Virus record (IMG/VR): IMGVR_UViG_2711768002_000013
DNA from: a virus
Taxonomy: Duplodnaviria; Heunggongvirae; Uroviricota; Caudoviricetes
Length of the DNA: 53,159 nucleotides
Strand: one strand, 5' to 3'
The notes under the pieces were generated by a model. That model worked only from the letters and a program-made list of their open reading frames with translations. It was not told the DNA's origin and made no database searches. Every line of letters begins with the position of its first letter. Within the stretch, counting starts at the first letter, position 1. A program made the position numbers and the translations under genes. This document shows, piece after piece, positions 1,553 to 39,961 of this stretch.

Positions 1553-1741
1553 TCACGAGGACTGAAGTTTCTCGCAATTAAAATTTATCAGTTTTACTTT
1601 CTGCTCTCTGGAAACGCCTGCTTCTTTTTTACCTGAGAGCATTTTTTCGCATTCTGATTTCGTTAGTTTAGATTTTGAATATCTTGTCCAGTTAGTAGGA
1701 GTGCCACCTTCCTTTTCAATAGTGGCGGTAATTTTATACAT
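1553..1741 (-). CDS. ydaC: Small DUF1187-like protein, YdaC-like
   Basis: 62-aa ORF starting MYKITATIEKEG; its ATG overlaps the ancestral TAA of the ralR frame; the listed 86-aa ORF is an upstream in-frame extension. Confidence 0.5.
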   Translation of the reverse strand: MYKITATIEKEGGTPTNWTRYSKSKLTKSECEKMLSGKKEAGVSREQKVKLINFNCEKLQSS

Positions 1742-11326: not shown

Positions 11327-11341
11327 TTGCCGGAGGCGCTT

Positions 11342-11758
11342 ATGGCAAAAGTTTTTACACAGGAAGAGCGTGAAAAAATTAAGGAGCAGGTTGTTGAGTT
11401 GGTACGCCAGAGTGGGCGCGAGACGTTAAGGCAACTGGAGGCCAAGACAGGTGCGACAAGATATCTGATGAGCATTCTTGCCAGAGAGTTGGTTGCCAGT
11501 GGCGATGTATACAACTCTGGCTATGGGTTATTCCCGTCTGAACAGGCTCGTAAGGATTGGAAAAACGCCCGCAAAAAACTATCCAGGGCAAAGGTGAAAA
11601 AAACGGTTGTGGTTGATCCTGACCTTATCTGGTCATTACCAGACGGAGAAATACGCCGCTATGACAGGCGTCAGAACATAATCTGTCGCGAGTGCCGGAA
11701 GAGTGAAGTTATGAAACGTGTACTGGCATTTTATCAAGGAAATCTTCGGTATTTATAG
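11342..11758 (+). CDS. Hypothetical phage protein
   Basis: ATG 11342 with GGAGG 5 nt upstream; 138 aa; no recognisable motif. Confidence 0.4.
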   Translation: MAKVFTQEEREKIKEQVVELVRQSGRETLRQLEAKTGATRYLMSILARELVASGDVYNSGYGLFPSEQARKDWKNARKKLSRAKVKKTVVVDPDLIWSLPDGEIRRYDRRQNIICRECRKSEVMKRVLAFYQGNLRYL

Positions 11759-11896
11759 ACGTTACTAGATCAAAGAGCATTAGTTCATATGTAAATTGAC
11801 ATTTTTCTGGCACAGGGGAGAGCTAGCGTGGTTGTCCGCTTTGTGCCAATAGCGGACATTGCTGGCTCATGGTATGTTAGTTTAAGGAGGCAGGTT

Positions 11897-12919
11897 ATGC
11901 CCTGTATTTCGCTGTGGTATAATAGTTGCGCAATTGATACAAGGGAGCGTTACATCGTGAAAATTGTTTTCGAGGTTAATGGAAAGAAAGTTCCACTAAA
12001 ATCTTTAAAATACATAAGCAAAAAAGATCAACTCGAAGTAATGAAAAACTGGTTCTTTGAAAACTTTGAAGATCCGGCAAATGCTTGTCCGTATGAAAGT
12101 AGAGAAGGTGGCTATGCTTACATATATGGCGGGCCGTATGATGCGAGCGAAGAACTACAATCCATCTTCGGTCAATATGTTAAATCTGAGTATATTGAGG
12201 AATTAGTAGATGAATTACAAACACAATGTTTTGACTGGTCTGGAAACTCAAATAATATAGATGATTGGTACGATGATGATATCTACGACGCTGTAACGTC
12301 TTCCGGTAATCCGTATTTAAAATTCATTGATAATATCGATAAAATAAAAAAACTTGCAAAAGATAAAACTGAACAACAGCAAAAAAACCACTTGCTTAGT
12401 TTGCTCTACACGAATGTTATTACAGCTTTGGAAACGCTTTATGTTGAGCTATTCATTAATTCTATAGAGAAAGATGATGTCTACATAGCCAATTGTATAG
12501 AAAAAGGTAAGACTGAATTTAAAGTAAGCAAAGATATTGCTGCGTTGCCTTTCAAGGGTGAACCCATCGAGAAAATTAGGGGAGAGCTAATCAGGTCAAT
12601 CAAGGAACACTTGATCAGTGCAAGCTGGCATAGCACTAAAAAGGTAATCGACCGCTATGAAGCTACATTCGATATAAAAGTACAAAAAGACTGTCCGATA
12701 GAAGCTATTGAATTGGCAACCCTCAATCGAAATCACTTAGTGCATCGTGGTGGAAAGGATAAAGAAGGGAACCTCGTAGTGATTACAGACCAGGATCTTG
12801 AAACGCTGATTGAAAATGCATCGAACCTGGCAATTATGCTCTACAACAGTTTAAATGTAGCAACGAATAAAACCACCATTTTGCAACCAGATGACAAACC
12901 GTTCATTCATGAATTTTAA
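11897..12919 (+). CDS. Hypothetical protein of AT-rich cargo cassette (gene 1); weak HEPN-like R-x4-H motif
   Basis: Perfect Shine-Dalgarno AAGGAGG 6 nt before ATG 11897; 340 aa; visibly AT-rich compared with neighbours; C-terminal NRNHLVHRG; in-frame GTG 11957 with AAGGGAG is an alternative start. Confidence 0.6.
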   Translation: MPCISLWYNSCAIDTRERYIVKIVFEVNGKKVPLKSLKYISKKDQLEVMKNWFFENFEDPANACPYESREGGYAYIYGGPYDASEELQSIFGQYVKSEYIEELVDELQTQCFDWSGNSNNIDDWYDDDIYDAVTSSGNPYLKFIDNIDKIKKLAKDKTEQQQKNHLLSLLYTNVITALETLYVELFINSIEKDDVYIANCIEKGKTEFKVSKDIAALPFKGEPIEKIRGELIRSIKEHLISASWHSTKKVIDRYEATFDIKVQKDCPIEAIELATLNRNHLVHRGGKDKEGNLVVITDQDLETLIENASNLAIMLYNSLNVATNKTTILQPDDKPFIHEF

Positions 12920-12934
12920 TAGCGCAGGTCATAC

Positions 12935-13936
12935 ATGGATATTCGCACACGAAAGACAAAATTTTTAGAGTCGTTAGATTCAACTGAAGTGATACGCAAA
13001 GCAGTAAGTCTCGCTATAGATTGCATTATTGATAATCATAATAGTAATGAAGATACCCCCTTAGTTATTACCAGCTATGATGATCTCTGTAGAATCCAGG
13101 TGCTAAATTATGTACAGGAGTTTTGCGAAGCTGCATTCCCTGATATGGATGAATATTACTTTAGTCCTAACATACTTCGCATCAACGGCAAGACTAGTGA
13201 AGAAGCTTGTATTAACTTAATTAAACTCTTAAGAAGTACAAAAGGCATGCTATTCTGGTCCGATGCCCCATCGTGGTTCGCTAGCCTCCCCGACGGATTA
13301 TTCCATGTTGTTAACATTGATCAAAAAATCGTTACTCGCGGCCTTAATAAGAAAAACTCTAAGCCGACAATAATCAATAAAGATTACAGTGTAGATACAC
13401 TACTATCAGAGCTATTTTTGAATGGCGCACACATGGAGCAACCCAACGTACACAACGTTTCTGAGGGAAACATGAAGTTCTATGATGAATGCCATGCTGG
13501 ATTAATCAGACCAATACCCGCTCCAATAGGCGCGTCATACGATGAAGAGATCACAATTAATTCTCCAGATTGGCAAAAGCTCGCGTGTGTAGCTTTACGC
13601 CGCTATCAGTCGAAGGAATGTCATGACGGAATGCAATGGGATACAACCGATCATGGTTGGACTGATGTAATCGCGTATCCATTCGTCGAAGAAATACAAT
13701 CAATGGATAATAGTGGTTATCGACAATGTTTAGTTGGGCTGGTCACAATAAACAATTCAAATGCAAATTCTCCGTACCTATCTACCGTTTGGATACATCC
13801 ATTTTATCGCAGGAGAGGGTTATTAAGTAAGTTATGGCCAAAATTACAAGAGTTATATGGAAGTAACTTCGAAATTGAGCGACCTAATGAAAATATGAAA
13901 GCATTTCTGAAAAGTGCGAAACACGCAGATTACTAA
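12935..13936 (+). CDS. Hypothetical protein of AT-rich cargo cassette (gene 2); possible GNAT-like C-terminus
   Basis: 333-aa ORF 15 nt after gene 1, same strand and base composition; C-terminal VWIHPFYRRRGLLSKLW resembles an acetyltransferase motif A, but weakly. Confidence 0.55.
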   Translation: MDIRTRKTKFLESLDSTEVIRKAVSLAIDCIIDNHNSNEDTPLVITSYDDLCRIQVLNYVQEFCEAAFPDMDEYYFSPNILRINGKTSEEACINLIKLLRSTKGMLFWSDAPSWFASLPDGLFHVVNIDQKIVTRGLNKKNSKPTIINKDYSVDTLLSELFLNGAHMEQPNVHNVSEGNMKFYDECHAGLIRPIPAPIGASYDEEITINSPDWQKLACVALRRYQSKECHDGMQWDTTDHGWTDVIAYPFVEEIQSMDNSGYRQCLVGLVTINNSNANSPYLSTVWIHPFYRRRGLLSKLWPKLQELYGSNFEIERPNENMKAFLKSAKHADY

Positions 13937-14113
13937 TTTATGAATCAGTCTGTGGAGTTAGGGTTGGTGTGAACAAGTAGGGTAAGAGCCTCAACGTGAT
14001 GCTATGCCGACCTGCTCCCTGAGAATTCACACAGAAGGCTGCTAGCAATGTCTGCAGATCGCTCAAAGCGGACTAAAATGTTGGCTTGTTTCTGACTTAG
14101 AGCATTTAAGGAA

Positions 14114-14338
14114 GTGCTGGTGGTGACTGGTTGTTGTGTTCCATTTCTACAGAATAAAATCACAGAAACTATACCCAATAGTTGTATTGAATCACTGACG
14201 AGACAGCCTCATATTTATCAGGACTGGTGTGCGTCTAATACAGGGGGTTGTCGTGCTGGTTCTCAAATGTGCGCTGGCTATTGCGGCTGTAATGGCAATT
14301 TATTGTCTTGCTGTTGTTCTTATGGAGCGGCTTTCTGA
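14114..14338 (+). CDS. Cys-rich small ORF (13 Cys in 74 codons), speculative
   Basis: AAGGAAG immediately upstream of GTG codons at 14114/14120/14123; C-terminal GGCRAGSQMCAGYCGCNGNLLSCCCSYGAAF; may be a chance ORF. Confidence 0.2.
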   Translation: MLVVTGCCVPFLQNKITETIPNSCIESLTRQPHIYQDWCASNTGGCRAGSQMCAGYCGCNGNLLSCCCSYGAAF

Positions 14339-14497
14339 TTGATTACATACTGGCTAGAAAAAAGGTGTTACCTTGGTTTATCTTTGTCCGGCAAGGTGCG
14401 CTCATTAATCTTAAGTAAATTTATTGCTCAAGTATTCAGATTACTTCTTATGGTTGAAGTCTCCTGTCAATGTAGAACCAATATATTTACAAAAATG

Positions 14498-14556: not shown

Positions 14557-14895
14557 CTATTTTTTGGTGCTATAGACTTTTTCGCCCGAAAAGTCTGGAG
14601 CGACCCAAAAGTTAATATTAAACTGAGCATCATCGCTTAGTTCAACACGGTGCCAGTATTGTGGTGGGCTTGTTGCAAAAGCGCCAGCATTAATGACTAC
14701 TTTTATCTCCGGTTCAGTAGCATTCTCATCAGTAAAACCATAATATGTTACAGTGCCTTCCATTACGCACAACTGCCCAAAAACACCTGCTGCTGTATTA
14801 TGATGTGTTAATAACGCTGAAGGTACGTTCTCTTTTGTGAAGAACGGAGTTGAGCGTTTGATTACCCAATCTTTAGGAATTCTCTTGTGTGTCAT
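14557..14895 (-). CDS. Small DUF1971 / YeaR-like protein
   Basis: ATG 14895 preceded by GGAGGAGG; 112 aa; RSTPFFTKENVP..YYGFTDENATEPE..YWHRVE..FNINFWVAPD pattern resembles YeaR-family proteins as I recall them. Confidence 0.45.
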   Translation of the reverse strand: MTHKRIPKDWVIKRSTPFFTKENVPSALLTHHNTAAGVFGQLCVMEGTVTYYGFTDENATEPEIKVVINAGAFATSPPQYWHRVELSDDAQFNINFWVAPDFSGEKVYSTKK

Positions 14896-15708
14896 AACCA
14901 CCTCCTCCAAAACATGCATTAAAAATGCATCTTTTGGAGGGTTATGTCAAGCTGTTATGAAACACATAATTGATATGTTGATTAGAGGAGAAGATAGAAT
15001 AAATATGGTTGTTTTTCGTATAACTATTTGTTTTACTTTTAGTTTATGCATTCTGTGTGTTAGGAATAAGTTATTAAAGTTTAATCAAAAAATCTCGATG
15101 TAGTCCACATAGATTACTGTTACTGAACCTTATTGTGTGTATTAGTTGTGTTCTGAAATTTCAGCTTAATTATTTATGATGTATTTTTTAACGATAAATA
15201 TTTTCCCAGGATACCTTTACTGTGTATATAAATAAATTATATACGCATAAATAATGTAAAGGCGTCCTTTTAGATATATCTTATCAAATGTTAATGACTT
15301 GAGTGGGAAATATGATTCCAGCAACTTATCATGTGGCTACTTTATAAAAATAATGCCCATATAAAACAACAAGCGAAAAGGATTACGGATAAAAAAGGAG
15401 CGAGATGTGCGAACTTGTTATTTTCCATGTTTAACCACCTTAAATAATTGATGATGACGGGATGATTGCATCTGTAATGCTTTTATTGAAATGTTATGAT
15501 AAAAAAGAACTTTTGCATAACATTAAAATGTAATTTATCTAATCGTTTTTAATAATAAGTGTCGTATTTCTATCCTTGTACCAGCTATTTGATATGTAGT
15601 GTTTGTTCATGCTATGTGGGGCTTTACACCATAGCCAGTTTATTTATACTTTATTCGTCAGCCTGAACAACTGGCATCTGCTGCGCTGCGCCATCGAGAG
15701 ATTGAGAA

Positions 15709-17590: not shown

Positions 17591-18122
17591 GGGCTGGTTT
17601 ATTGTATGCCAAATGATTATTAAAAAGGTTGTGTTAATAACAAGATCCGAAATAATATGCCTGCATATTTTTATCTTGCTTATATTCTGCATATTGTGCA
17701 TAGCAGGCTCATCCCTGCAATCAAAACTGTATGATGAGTATTTTTTGTTTTCCTTTTTTCCAGTCATCTGATGATGACCTGCTTCTTTTTAATCCGGATC
17801 GACATCAGTTTTTTAAGATAATTCCTGCGAGTTATATGCATAAATGCCACAAACTCCGCATTTTATGTGGTTGGGAGTTGCCGGGCGCGCAGTGAGTTTG
17901 CTAAGAAAACTCCTGCATGGTGAATCCCCCTGTGCGGTGGGGTGATACCATTAACCTTTTCTGTCGCCGACAGGTATCACGAACATTTTGTTCACCGGGA
18001 GGCACCCGGCACCATGCACTTCAATAGATTCTCTCCACATTATGGATATTCTTTCAGAATATCCCACGCAGACTTTGTGTAAATGTTAACAAATGTGCGT
18101 TTTATTTGATCTGATTCGCTGT

Positions 18123-38183: not shown

Positions 38184-38514
38184 TACGGAAGAATTTCACT
38201 GGTTACCAGAGGATGGAATGAAAACAGAAAATAAACCATCGATAAAAACTGTAAGATTTGGTGATGGTTATGAGCAACGAAGTCCAAATGGACTTAATCA
38301 TTCTCTGCGCGTTTTCACCTGTGATTTCAAAGTTGAGGCGAATGAACGTGATTCATTTGAAAAATTTTTAGCCCGGCATGAAGGCTATAAATCTTTTTTT
38401 TGGCGCCCGCCGGGTATTAACAGAAAAATCAGAGTGGTGTGTCGAACGTGGTCAGCGACAGAACATATCACCTATACCGATTTTTCGTGTCAGTTTGACG
38501 AAGTGGTGATCTGA
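38176..38514 (+). CDS. Minor tail protein (lambda M-like)
   Basis: 112-aa ORF overlapping the tape measure stop; start uncertain (GTG 38176 or ATG 38218). Confidence 0.65.
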
Positions 38515-39212
38515 TGCAGGACATACAACAGGAAACGCTGAATGAATGCATTCGTGCGGAGCAGTCGGCCAGCGTGGTGCTCTGGGAAATCGACCTGACC
38601 GAGGTAGGCGGGGATCGCTACTTTTTCTGCAATGAGCAGAACGAGAAAGGAGAGTCTGTCACCTGGCAGAGTCGGCAGTATCAGGCCTATCCCATTCAGG
38701 GGAGTGGATTTGAGATGAACGGCAAAGGTGCCAGTGCAAGGCCAACGCTGAAAGTCTCTAATCTGCACGGCATGGTCACCGGGATGGCGGAAGACCTGCA
38801 GAGTCTGGTCGGCGGAACGGTGGTCAGGCGTAAGGTTTACGCCCGTTTTCTGGATGCGGTGAACTTCGTCAACGGAAACAGTGACGCCGATCCGGAGCAG
38901 GAGGTGATCAGCCGCTGGCGTATTGAGCAGTGCAGCGAACTGAGCGCGGTCAGTGCCTCCTTTGTACTGTCCACGCCGACGGAAACGGACGGCGCTGTTT
39001 TTCCGGGGCGCATCATGCTTGCTAATACCTGCACCTGGACCTATCGCGGTGATGAGTGCGGTTATCACGGTCCGGCTGTCGCGGATGAATATGACCAGCC
39101 AACGTCCGATATCACGAAGGATAAATGCAGCAAATGCCTGAGCGGTTGTAAGTTCCGCAATAACGTCGGCAACTTTGGCGGCTTCCTTTCCATTAACAAA
39201 CTTTCGCAGTAA
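38514..39212 (+). CDS. Minor tail protein (lambda L-like)
   Basis: 232 aa, same length as lambda L; Cys cluster near the C-terminus. Confidence 0.75.
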   Translation: MQDIQQETLNECIRAEQSASVVLWEIDLTEVGGDRYFFCNEQNEKGESVTWQSRQYQAYPIQGSGFEMNGKGASARPTLKVSNLHGMVTGMAEDLQSLVGGTVVRRKVYARFLDAVNFVNGNSDADPEQEVISRWRIEQCSELSAVSASFVLSTPTETDGAVFPGRIMLANTCTWTYRGDECGYHGPAVADEYDQPTSDITKDKCSKCLSGCKFRNNVGNFGGFLSINKLSQ

Positions 39213-39217
39213 ATCCC

Positions 39218-39961
39218 ATGACACAGACAGAATCAGCGATTCTGGCGCACGCCCGGCGATGTGCGCCAGCGGAGTCGTGCGGCTTCGTGGTGAGAACACC
39301 GGAGGGGGAAAGATATTTTCCCTGCGTGAATATTTCCGGTGAGCCGGAGGAGTATTTCCGGATGGCTCCGGAAGACTGGCTGCAGGCAGAGATGCAGGGT
39401 GAGATTGTGGCGCTGGTCCACAGCCACCCCGGTGGTCTGCCCTGGCTGAGTGAGGCCGACCGGCGGCTGCAGGTGCAGAGTGATTTGTCGTGGTGGCTGG
39501 TCTGCCGCGGGGCGATTCACAAGTTCCGCTGTGTGCCGCATCTCACCGGGCGGCGCTTTGAGCACGGGGTGACGGACTGTTACACGCTGTTCCGGGACGC
39601 TTACCATCTGGCGGGAATTGAGATGCCAGATTTTCATCGTGAGGACGACTGGTGGCGTAATGGTCAGAATCTCTATCTGGATAATCTGGAGGCTACAGGG
39701 CTGTATCAGGTGCCGTTGTCAACGGCGCAGCCGGGCGATGTGCTGCTGTGCTGTTTTGGTTCATCGGTGCCGAATCATGCCGCCATTTACTGTGGTGACG
39801 GCGAGCTGCTGCACCATATTCCTGAACAACTGAGCAAACGAGAGAGGTATACCGACAAATGGCAGCGACGCACACACTCCCTCTGGCGTCACCGGGCATG
39901 GCACGCATCTGCCTTTACGGGGATTTGCAGCGATTTGGCCGCCGCATCGACCTTCGTGTGA
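39218..39961 (+). CDS. Tail assembly protein K-like (JAB/MPN plus NlpC/P60 motifs)
   Basis: HSHPGG...SEAD JAMM-like motif and DCYTLFRDAY..H Cys/His region. Confidence 0.75.
   Translation: MTQTESAILAHARRCAPAESCGFVVRTPEGERYFPCVNISGEPEEYFRMAPEDWLQAEMQGEIVALVHSHPGGLPWLSEADRRLQVQSDLSWWLVCRGAIHKFRCVPHLTGRRFEHGVTDCYTLFRDAYHLAGIEMPDFHREDDWWRNGQNLYLDNLEATGLYQVPLSTAQPGDVLLCCFGSSVPNHAAIYCGDGELLHHIPEQLSKRERYTDKWQRRTHSLWRHRAWHASAFTGICSDLAAASTFV

Follow-up and report, generated by a model that had tools for sequence, protein, structure and literature searches.

The closest described system is DS-33 (working name "GNAT"), reported in the DefensePredictor study (Science 2026, doi 10.1126/science.adv7924, PMC13092281) and taken from an E. 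coli strain of the DefensePredictor collection. It is scored there as defensive (TRUE in Table S6), and the WT system lowered the plating of phages T7, T3, Bas67, and Bas26 by about 2 to 6 logs. The log10 reductions in the two replicates (Table S7) were 3.78 and 2.60 for T7, 3.30 and 2.40 for T3, 4.0 and 1.98 for Bas67, and 5.0 and 5.9 for Bas26. When gene 1 was deleted, the values fell to between -0.48 and 0.54 for all five phages of the mutant panel, and the R258A substitution abolished defense as well (-0.30 to 0.78 for all five phages). The deletion of gene 2 left reductions of 4.78 and 4.30 for T7, 3.30 and 3.30 for T3, 4.0 and 3.30 for Bas67, and 5.0 and 4.9 for Bas26. Plaque data are given for DS-33 with no mechanism, and the system goes undiscussed in the main text; in the accessible text and tables of that article, neither an RNase activity nor an RNA target, a trigger, or an abortive phenotype is reported for it.

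We compared this system with a two-gene cassette in a stretch of 53,159 nucleotides of viral DNA (IMG/VR record IMGVR_UViG_2711768002_000013), referred to below as the window. An earlier note, made from the sequence alone, had described two adjoining ORFs there and guessed that they formed an anti-phage or toxin-type two-component system of no assignable family. Both ORFs were found on the plus strand at the claimed place, the first opening at 11897 or 11957 and the second encoding 333 aa (Table 1). The product of gene 1 was identical to the DS-33 sequence in Table S8 of PMC13092281 at 320/320 positions and that of gene 2 at 332/333 positions, the difference being P289 here and L289 in the published protein. 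The homologue of DS-33 protein B (WP_000354965.1) is gene 2, which lies directly downstream in the same orientation, and gene order and spacing agree with those of DS-33. Judged by protein identity, the cassette is the anti-phage system DS-33, and as a system it is already known, having been predicted, cloned, and shown to be protective in 2026 (PMC13092281). The anti-phage guess is therefore supported, since an identical gene 1 with a gene 2 one residue off was shown to be defensive (PMC13092281). A family can also be named: besides DS-33 itself, the domains are HEPN/RES-NTD1 plus RiboL-PSP-HEPN in gene 1 and GNAT in gene 2. Apart from residue 289, the window copy differs from the tested one in that it lies in a Rac-like prophage. 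A full-text search with both WP accessions retrieved no paper, and the match was found only inside supplementary tables.

Table 1. Features of the DS-33 cassette in the window (positions are those of the whole stretch)
Feature	Position	Strand	Description	Basis or remark
Mobile cassette unit	11834..14073	+	Both genes with their promoter region and ~137 nt of 3'-flanking sequence	blastn against loci of other genera and contexts
Putative extended -10 promoter element	11915..11923	+	TGGTATAAT	Read from aligned loci
Shine-Dalgarno sequence for the GTG start	11941..11947	+	AAGGGAG	9 nt before GTG 11957
Gene 1 (DS-33A)	11957..12919	+	320 aa, RefSeq WP_014639476.1; HEPN/RES-NTD1 and RiboL-PSP-type HEPN	100% identity to tested DS-33A
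HEPN/RES N-terminal domain 1 (PF18870)	12032..12232	+	aa 26-92	Pfam matches of homologues; sub-threshold in the window protein
HEPN domain	12359..12880	+	~aa 135-308	
Predicted catalytic motif	12728..12748	+	R258-N-H-L-V-H263-R264 (RNHLVH)	Invariance; published loss of function of R258A
Gene 2 (DS-33B)	12935..13936	+	333 aa, RefSeq WP_000354966.1; N-terminal alpha/beta domain (aa 1-~170) and GNAT-fold domain (~176-330)	
P289 codon	13799..13801	+	In GNAT motif A (WIHPFYRRRG)	Sole residue differing from the tested allele (L289)

Taken as a whole, the explanation that we consider likely is that the DS-33 cassette is a self-promoted cargo pair (moron) in a Rac-like E. coli prophage, where it fills a variable slot flanked by the DUF977 (Ren-like) gene and the nin region, that gene 1 encodes a HEPN-type defense protein, predicted to be a nuclease, and that gene 2 is an accessory. 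The slot after the DUF977 gene is filled by other cargo in related phages, and in phage Evi it is occupied by an ordinary GNAT gene. When the window was compared by blastn with loci from other contexts (L004, L090, L091, L095, and L114), homology began at 11834-11842 and ended at 14007-14073; a wider common block, from 11332 to 14354, was shared with S88-type E. coli prophages. The two genes are co-oriented, separated by 15 nt, and placed with replication genes on one side and ninB on the other. Their lower GC content, judged by eye in the earlier note, was borne out by computation: it was 0.361 for gene 1 and 0.391 for gene 2, against 0.480 for the O-like gene, 0.527 for the DnaC-like gene, 0.499 for the DUF1627 gene, 0.472 for the DUF977 gene, 0.502 for ninB, and 0.467 for the whole window. 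GC3 was 0.35 to 0.36 in the cassette and 0.47 to 0.61 in the flanks. The low-GC stretch also extends past the cassette, to about 15708. No RNA family of Rfam was found within the cassette. In a phage DNA collection, the nucleotide search matched nothing but the first 100 nt, which lie upstream of the cassette, and tblastn found only relatives with 24 to 29% identity, in uncultured phage contigs.

The earlier note had read gene 1 as 340 aa preceded by a perfect AAGGAGG. This AAGGAGG does exist, at 11884-11890, 6 nt before ATG 11897, but the 340-aa reading is not conserved. In the family alignment, the proteins of homologues from other genera always start at the position of GTG 11957 (320 aa), with AAGGGAG or AAGGAGG ahead of it. 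The upstream ATG reads ATA in three loci (L097, L100, and L101), and in-frame stops lie 5' of the GTG in two others (L091 and L093). PGAP likewise called the 320-aa form, and in the FORC_081 locus, which is 100% identical, it used these coordinates. At the position of the AAGGGAG, six loci (L095, L097, L101, L102, L104, and L114) have AAGGAGG. Further upstream, most loci with both genes keep the putative extended -10 element as TGGTATAAT, TGGTACAAT, or TGATACAAT; TGTAAAAT or CGGTATAAT occurs in a few, and L103 is divergent. It is conserved even where the sequence upstream of it is entirely different (L102 and L104), and it lies downstream of both the AAGGAGG and ATG 11897. The start at ATG 11897 was dropped, as it is not conserved and lies upstream of the extended -10 element. 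By this comparison, the conserved GTG 11957 is the most likely start codon of gene 1. A scan for consensus promoters and terminators gave nothing significant in 11760-11957 or just 3' of gene 2; the putative extended -10 element was missed because it has no good -35 hexamer.

The gene 1 product has an alpha-helical HEPN fold, and its AF2 model had a pLDDT of 85.8. For the HEPN/RES-NTD1 family (PF18870), the window protein scored 21.8 to 22.2 bits against a cut-off of 27.4; all 31 aligned homologues matched at an E value of ≤0.01, and some remote relatives were above the cut-off (27.7 to 29.2 bits). The motifs EDP, P-Y, EGGY, and GGPY of this module were invariant or nearly so in the family alignment. 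The module is probably a regulatory or sensing part because it is fused elsewhere to differing nuclease or toxin domains, for example to PIN_8 in P0117. The RiboL-PSP-HEPN family (PF18735) gave no match to the window protein at an E value of ≤1 and was matched by 12 of the 31 aligned homologues, with a best E value of 9.9e-10. The earlier note had taken the R-x4-H motif for one that may occur by chance. This was not borne out by the family, in which 98 homologues, with identities down to 26%, all keep R258, H263, and R264. For both cassette proteins, NCBIfam gave no match, a PDB sequence search gave nothing useful, and the PADLOC models gave no convincing match (weakest E value, 0.01).

The gene 2 product shows a GNAT fold. 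All of its listed structural matches fall on the GNAT half, and the best of them are the protein-lysine acetyltransferases ATAT-2, ESCO1, HAT1, and MYST. Its score for Acetyltransf_1 (Pfam) was 19.9 bits, below the gathering score of 20.7, which was passed by 2 of 10 stand-alone relatives (24.2 and 21.1 bits). Motif A reads R292-R-R-G295-L-L, compared with Q/R-x-x-G-x-G/A, so the last position is Leu. The motif-A-like segment of the earlier note (HPFYRRRG) is present, and chance, which had been suspected here too, was not borne out: H288, P289, and R292 never vary among relatives with as little as 26% identity. Position 295 is variable in the family (G/R/K). P289 was invariant in both alignments of the family, one of 54 sequences (A4) and one of 20 sequences that included stand-alone relatives (A5), and it belongs to a set of just six residues that never vary in the wider gene 2 family. 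A 61-nt match around this codon found the window allele exactly in 209/209 complete E. coli genomes with the segment, and the P allele was found on at least 1000 contigs, compared with 31 for the L allele.

The cassette was carried by 205 of 5426 complete E. coli genomes, in Rac-like and Qin-like prophages, and the carriers include the extraintestinal pathogenic (ExPEC) reference strains S88, IHE3034, APEC O1, and UTI89. Both genes are annotated as "hypothetical protein" in these 205 genomes; the pairs can now be labeled DS-33A and DS-33B, with the 320-aa GTG start for gene 1. This patchy presence, the distinct composition, and the finding of the same 2.24-kb unit in unrelated contexts support the proposal that the cassette is horizontally acquired cargo. 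Among 80 gene 1 loci fetched from genomes, gene 2 was present at only 2, those at 98 to 100% identity, and the homologues of gene 1 at ≤76% identity were solitary. The solitary copies adjoin ApeA-like and AbiJ-NTD3 genes, or an integrase gene. The pair itself is flanked by Eleos and Gabija genes in L095, and in L102 it adjoins a dGTPase gene. Gene 2 relatives at ≤56% identity lack gene 1; in L117 the neighbor is an AAA_13/PDC-S06 ATPase gene, and in L113 a HigBA-like pair lies on one side and a Tse2-like toxin gene on the other. A relative at 86% identity (L098) is also without gene 1 and is two genes away from a XamI restriction enzyme gene. Each family is found mostly alone in defense islands or mobile elements, and the pair is one sub-clade that moves as a unit. 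The predicted nuclease family of gene 1 is mostly a one-gene system spread over many phyla, with the GNAT-like partner as a late, lineage-specific addition. The label of a two-component system was therefore not supported as worded, since the families are mostly found apart and the published deletions make gene 1 necessary and sufficient, and gene 2 dispensable, for the measured defense. On the other hand, the adjacent genes diverge jointly, from 100% down to 84% (gene 1) and 78% (gene 2) identity, and this joint divergence with lasting adjacency speaks for a functional tie.

By analogy with ApeA, HepS, DARNA/PD-T7-3, and PrrC, the HEPN domain of gene 1 would be a latent RNase. Infection would activate it, the activated DS-33A may cut RNA of the host, with tRNA anticodon loops as the likeliest target, and the resulting halt of translation would abort the infection. 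Gene 2 would be an accessory acquired by one gene 1 sub-clade, most likely a modulator that mildly damps the nuclease or, alternatively, a protein with a separate function outside the tested phage panel.

A reading that we hold to be rather unlikely is that two independent single-gene defense or conflict modules travel together, gene 2 having an anti-phage or phage-versus-phage activity of its own on phages outside the tested set, such as temperate lambdoid competitors, with no action on gene 1. Both families are indeed found alone in defense or mobile contexts, stand-alone GNAT-like relatives of gene 2 (~160 aa) are numerous, and the mutant panel consisted of only five phages, apparently those that the WT restricts (PMC13092281). 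However, the strain with gene 1 deleted was unprotected against all five, the DefensePredictor log-odds were low for gene 2 (1.08, versus 9.45 for gene 1; PMC13092281), and the 15-nt spacing and co-divergence suit a functional operon. The operon order, the tight spacing, and the co-divergence would also suit a toxin-regulator pair, in which the GNAT protein curbs the HEPN nuclease by acetylation or binding until infection lifts the curb. A parallel exists in the MNT antitoxin, which AMPylates HEPN toxins, and the structural likeness of gene 2 to protein-lysine acetyltransferases points the same way. Protection also rose when gene 2 was deleted, by 1.0 and 1.7 logs for T7 and by 1.0 and 0.5 logs for T5 in the two replicates, and in the second replicate by 1.3 logs for Bas67 and 0.9 logs for T3 (PMC13092281). 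This rise could nevertheless be an expression artifact, and the tested L289 allele may already be defective. Because the strain without gene 2 was viable with normal defense, gene 2 is no essential antitoxin, and a partner is missing from most homologues of gene 1, even from close ones (75 to 76% identity); we regard such a curb as unlikely. A classical toxin-antitoxin pair was rejected in view of that viability and of the usually solitary gene 1. It is very doubtful that gene 2 is unrelated cargo tied to gene 1 by history only, such as an acetyltransferase of small molecules or antibiotics from which the lysogen would profit: aminoglycoside and polyamine acetyltransferases are among its GNAT-fold matches and the GNAT gene of phage Evi fills the same slot, but it is distinguished from housekeeping GNATs by an unusual invariant signature (IRPIPAP, SPxWQK, and HPFxR) and by the conserved additional domain at its N terminus, and its solitary relatives sit in defense or toxin contexts.

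Within the preferred reading, a defense carried by gene 1 with gene 2 as an accessory, the published dispensability of gene 2 is less secure because the tested L289 allele is altered at a family-invariant residue, and gene 2 may matter more than the published deletion data suggest. On a rather unlikely reading, the natural P289 form could be an active component that acetylates or binds DS-33A and so sets its activation threshold, or that modifies a phage or host protein and widens the range of defense; the published dispensability would then reflect the rare L289 allele. In that case, acetyltransferase control of a HEPN defense would be seen for the first time in DS-33. The L289 allele is the one used in the sole published assay of the partner, and an acetyltransferase may therefore yet tune the HEPN nuclease.

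The likeness to other known systems is partial. Text searches of Anantharaman 2013 and Kaur 2020 found nothing on RiboL-PSP or GNAT. The GNAT toxins TacT, AtaT, and KacT resemble gene 2 in having a GNAT fold and in being encoded in mobile cassettes of two genes. These toxins are about 170 aa long and are paired with a small DNA-binding RHH antitoxin. Gene 2, in contrast, encodes 333 aa that include an additional domain, is not paired with such an antitoxin, and has no reported toxicity; a TacT-like toxin was rejected for this wrong size and wrong partner. In the HEPN-MNT (HepT/MntA) toxin-antitoxin systems, the partner is a nucleotidyltransferase instead of a GNAT-fold protein, and gene 1 is much larger and usually partnerless; no nucleotidyltransferase domain was found in gene 2 or the neighboring genes. 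PD-T4-2 (Vassallo et al. 2022, PMC9519451) is, like this cassette, a two-gene E. coli defense system, and a RiboL-PSP-type HEPN domain (PF18735) is present in its B protein. PD-T4-2_B is the best remote match of gene 1 in the DefensePredictor table (HHblits probability, 96.1; coverage, 0.55; PMC13092281). The partner in PD-T4-2 is a DUF262 protein (PMC10952713), whereas gene 2 has a GNAT fold, with no match to DUF262 in Pfam or PADLOC and no convincing match to the PADLOC model of PD-T4-2. PD-T4-2 was selected on T4, whereas DS-33 is active on T7-like phages and Bas26. Gene 1 also resembles the single-protein HEPN defenses ApeA, HepS (Gifsy-1 prophage), DARNA/PD-T7-3, and DS-11, in each of which an R-x4-H HEPN nuclease is fused to a noncatalytic domain that controls activation. 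HepS, ApeA, and DARNA cleave tRNA, and DARNA also defends against T3, T5, and T7 (DARNA preprint). The partner domains differ, being ApeA_NTD1 in ApeA, a Pds5-like C-terminal domain in DARNA, CBS in DS-11, and HEPN/RES-NTD1 in gene 1.

The two genes of the cassette are an already known anti-phage system, DS-33. In the DefensePredictor supplement (Science 2026, PMC13092281), WP_014639476.1 and WP_000354965.1 are listed together (NZ_QOWT01000046.1, 6922-8901); the system, cloned with 'GNAT' as its working name, was recorded as defensive (TRUE) and named DS-33. A comparison of the window with the printed DS-33 sequences (PMC13092281) showed identity at 320 of 320 residues for gene 1 and at 332 of 333 for gene 2. 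An earlier note, made without database searches, had proposed that the pair was horizontally acquired anti-phage cargo, and this proposal was right. DS-33 is not treated individually in the main text of PMC13092281, which puts the number of validated systems with HEPN domains at four, and PADLOC-DB (2023) contains no model of the system.

The contribution of each gene can be read from the two replicate plaque series published with the system.

Protection by DS-33 and its variants (Table S7, PMC13092281), as log10 reduction in plating, replicate 1/replicate 2
Construct	T7	T3	Bas67	Bas26	T5
Wild type	3.78/2.60	3.30/2.40	4.0/1.98	5.0/5.9	0.77/0.08
Gene 2 deleted	4.78/4.30	3.30/3.30	4.0/3.30	5.0/4.9	1.73/0.55
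Gene 1 deleted	0.08/-0.30	-0.48/0	0/-0.18	0.52/0.30	0.54/0.08
R258A	0.78/0.46	-0.30/0.30	0.52/0	0.74/0.43	0.37/0.30

According to these values, gene 1 and its HEPN arginine, R258, were necessary, and gene 1 was sufficient, for the measured defence (PMC13092281). Gene 2 was not required, and its loss tended to increase protection against T7-like phages. The present data thus do not support the idea, also put forward earlier, of a two-component system.

The one residue of gene 2 that differs, residue 289, is L in the published clone and P in the window, and it belongs to the GNAT motif-A segment WIHPFYRRRG. P289 was invariant in 54 full-length relatives of gene 2 and in 19 stand-alone ones (26-36% identity). 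All 209 complete E. coli genomes having the segment matched the P289 allele exactly over 61 nt, and in a large protein collection at least 1000 contigs carried the P allele, compared with 31 for the L allele. Because P289 is invariant and the L allele is rare, gene 2 as tested may have been impaired. Even so, when the L289 gene 2 was deleted, protection against T7 rose by 1.0 log in one replicate and 1.7 logs in the other (Table S7, PMC13092281). This shift may indicate that gene 2 is a weak modulator, it may be an expression artefact, or it may reflect an allele in which a stronger role of gene 2 is masked. The remaining interest of the cassette lies in this allele issue and in the GNAT partner.

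The predicted structure of the gene 2 product (pLDDT, 90.1; pTM, 0.82) comprises an alpha/beta domain covering about the first 170 residues, to which no relatives could be assigned, and a C-terminal GNAT fold. HAT1, MYST and ESCO1 ranked highest in Foldseek, and the protein fell narrowly below the Pfam Acetyltransf_1 cut-off (19.9 versus 20.7 bits). An exhaustive profile search also found the C-terminal half as stand-alone proteins of about 150 to 180 aa, among which only S210, W213, L282, H288, P289 and R292 were invariant.

For gene 1, the Shine-Dalgarno sequence described earlier was found ahead of the upstream ATG, but that start was not conserved; in other respects the earlier observation was essentially right. 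In all aligned homologues, from many genera, the protein begins at the position of the GTG, with MK(I/V)VF. This GTG was kept in the upstream DNA of 13 pair-carrying loci, with AAGGGAG or AAGGAGG 9 nt before it. The ATG position reads ATA in three comparison loci (L097, L100 and L101), in-frame stop codons separate it from the GTG in two others (L091 and L093), and PGAP calls the 320-aa form (WP_014639476.1). Between the two starts, TGGTATAAT or TGGTACAAT was conserved and resembles an extended -10 promoter element. Since it lies 3' of the Shine-Dalgarno sequence and the ATG, a transcript begun there would exclude both. A consensus promoter scan did not list this element.

The gene 1 protein gave a sub-threshold Pfam match to PF18870 (HEPN/RES N-terminal domain 1), which was matched by all 31 aligned homologues; 12 of the 31 matched PF18735 (RiboL-PSP-HEPN). 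Elsewhere, the N-terminal module forms fusions with a PIN_8 nuclease or with different C-terminal regions, an arrangement that fits a shared regulatory module with exchangeable effectors.

The window is a lambdoid prophage of E. coli, identified as Rac-like by its match to RalA, the RNA antitoxin in the type I toxin-antitoxin system RalR/RalA of the Rac prophage. Its early region encodes O-like, DnaC-like, DUF1627 and DUF977 (Ren-like) proteins and then NinB, and the two co-oriented ORFs of the cassette lie between the DUF977 gene and ninB. As had been judged by eye, the GC content was lower in gene 1 (0.361) and gene 2 (0.391) than in the four upstream genes (0.47-0.53) and ninB (0.50), and GC3 was 0.35-0.36 versus 0.47-0.61 in the flanks. 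Low GC extends downstream to about 15708; in S88-type prophages, hokD occupies the place of the tract from 14557.

Features in and around the cassette and elsewhere in the window
Feature	Position	Strand	Details
RalA match	1557-1735		Rfam RF02694, 225 bits
Gene 1 ORF	11828..12919	+	possible starts ATG 11897 or GTG 11957
Common DNA unit	11834-14073		
AAGGAGG	11884-11890		
Putative extended -10 element	11915-11923		
Gene 2 ORF	12935..13936	+	333 aa
Block 3' of gene 2	13937-14354		420 nt, 97% identity with S88-type prophages; no annotated gene
Cys-rich ORF in block	14114-14338		74 aa
Two weak terminator-like hairpins in block	14277-14331		
DUF1971 (TehB N-terminal-like) gene	14557-14919	-	PF09313, E 2.6e-26; in low-GC tract
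AT-rich stretch before ninB	14920-15708		~790 nt, GC 0.305; no convincing ORF
sRNA STnc100 match	17885-18071		Rfam, 86.6 bits
GC-rich tracts	38501-43000, 45001-46000		GC up to 0.56-0.62 versus window mean 0.467; composition unlike remaining prophage
Unusually strong AT skew	45-46 kb		+0.40 to +0.42
IS009 match	47775-47973		Rfam, 224.6 bits
AT-rich tract near right end	48001-49500		GC 0.30-0.35; possibly additional cargo

The position following the DUF977 gene is a hotspot for variable cargo in these lambdoid phages: it holds a 444-aa FRG-domain protein in phage Tritos (L126, 3742-5076) and an HTH-cupin regulator with a 142-aa GNAT in phage Evi (L127, 3561-4774). The cassette was present in 205 of 5426 complete E. 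coli genomes, annotated 'hypothetical protein' every time. The common DNA unit occurs in Rac-like and Qin-like prophages, beside a dGTPase gene (L102) and with ordinary chromosomal genes on either side. On a metagenome contig (L095, 529-10711), the cassette sits in a textbook defence island, flanked by Eleos LeoA and LeoBC (E 5e-164 and 4e-154) and the Gabija GajB helicase (E 2e-264). A protein pair 100% identical to that of E. coli, on a 3262-nt contig binned to a Collinsella sp. MAG (L003, JAIHTM010000277.1) most likely represents a mis-binned enterobacterial contig rather than a real actinobacterial copy.

The comparison of genomes is in line with the plaque data. Among 80 genome loci encoding gene 1 relatives, covering Acidobacteriota, Chloroflexota, cyanobacteria and many Proteobacteria, gene 2 was present in only the 2 at 98-100% identity; relatives at 76% (Aeromonas), 75% (Yersinia), 67% and 63% identity and all distant ones were solitary. 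The 75% homologue, in Yersinia alsatica (L006, 4338-5699), is head-to-head with an ApeA-like gene (ApeA_NTD1 plus Apea-HEPN), and both adjoin P2-like Ogr and portal genes, thus placing two different HEPN defence genes in one phage hotspot. Other solitary copies adjoin an AbiJ-NTD3 gene (L007) or an integrase (L008). Seen from gene 2, gene 1 lies immediately upstream of relatives with at least 73% identity, the exception being L098, in which the gene for a XamI restriction enzyme is two genes away from the gene 2 relative. Relatives with no more than 56% identity lack this upstream gene 1; they adjoin an AAA_13/PDC-S06 ATPase or are flanked by a HigBA-like pair on one side and a Tse2-like toxin on the other. 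The paired genes co-diverge from 100% down to 84% (gene 1) and 78% (gene 2).

Taken as a whole, the cassette is very probably a known defence system with a HEPN effector and an accessory GNAT. DS-33A would be a latent HEPN RNase, kept off by its N-terminal module until infection; once switched on, it would cleave RNA, halt translation and abort infection. Its targets may be tRNA anticodon loops, a detail held with much less confidence than the overall reading and suggested by analogy with ApeA, HepS, DARNA/PD-T7-3 and PrrC.
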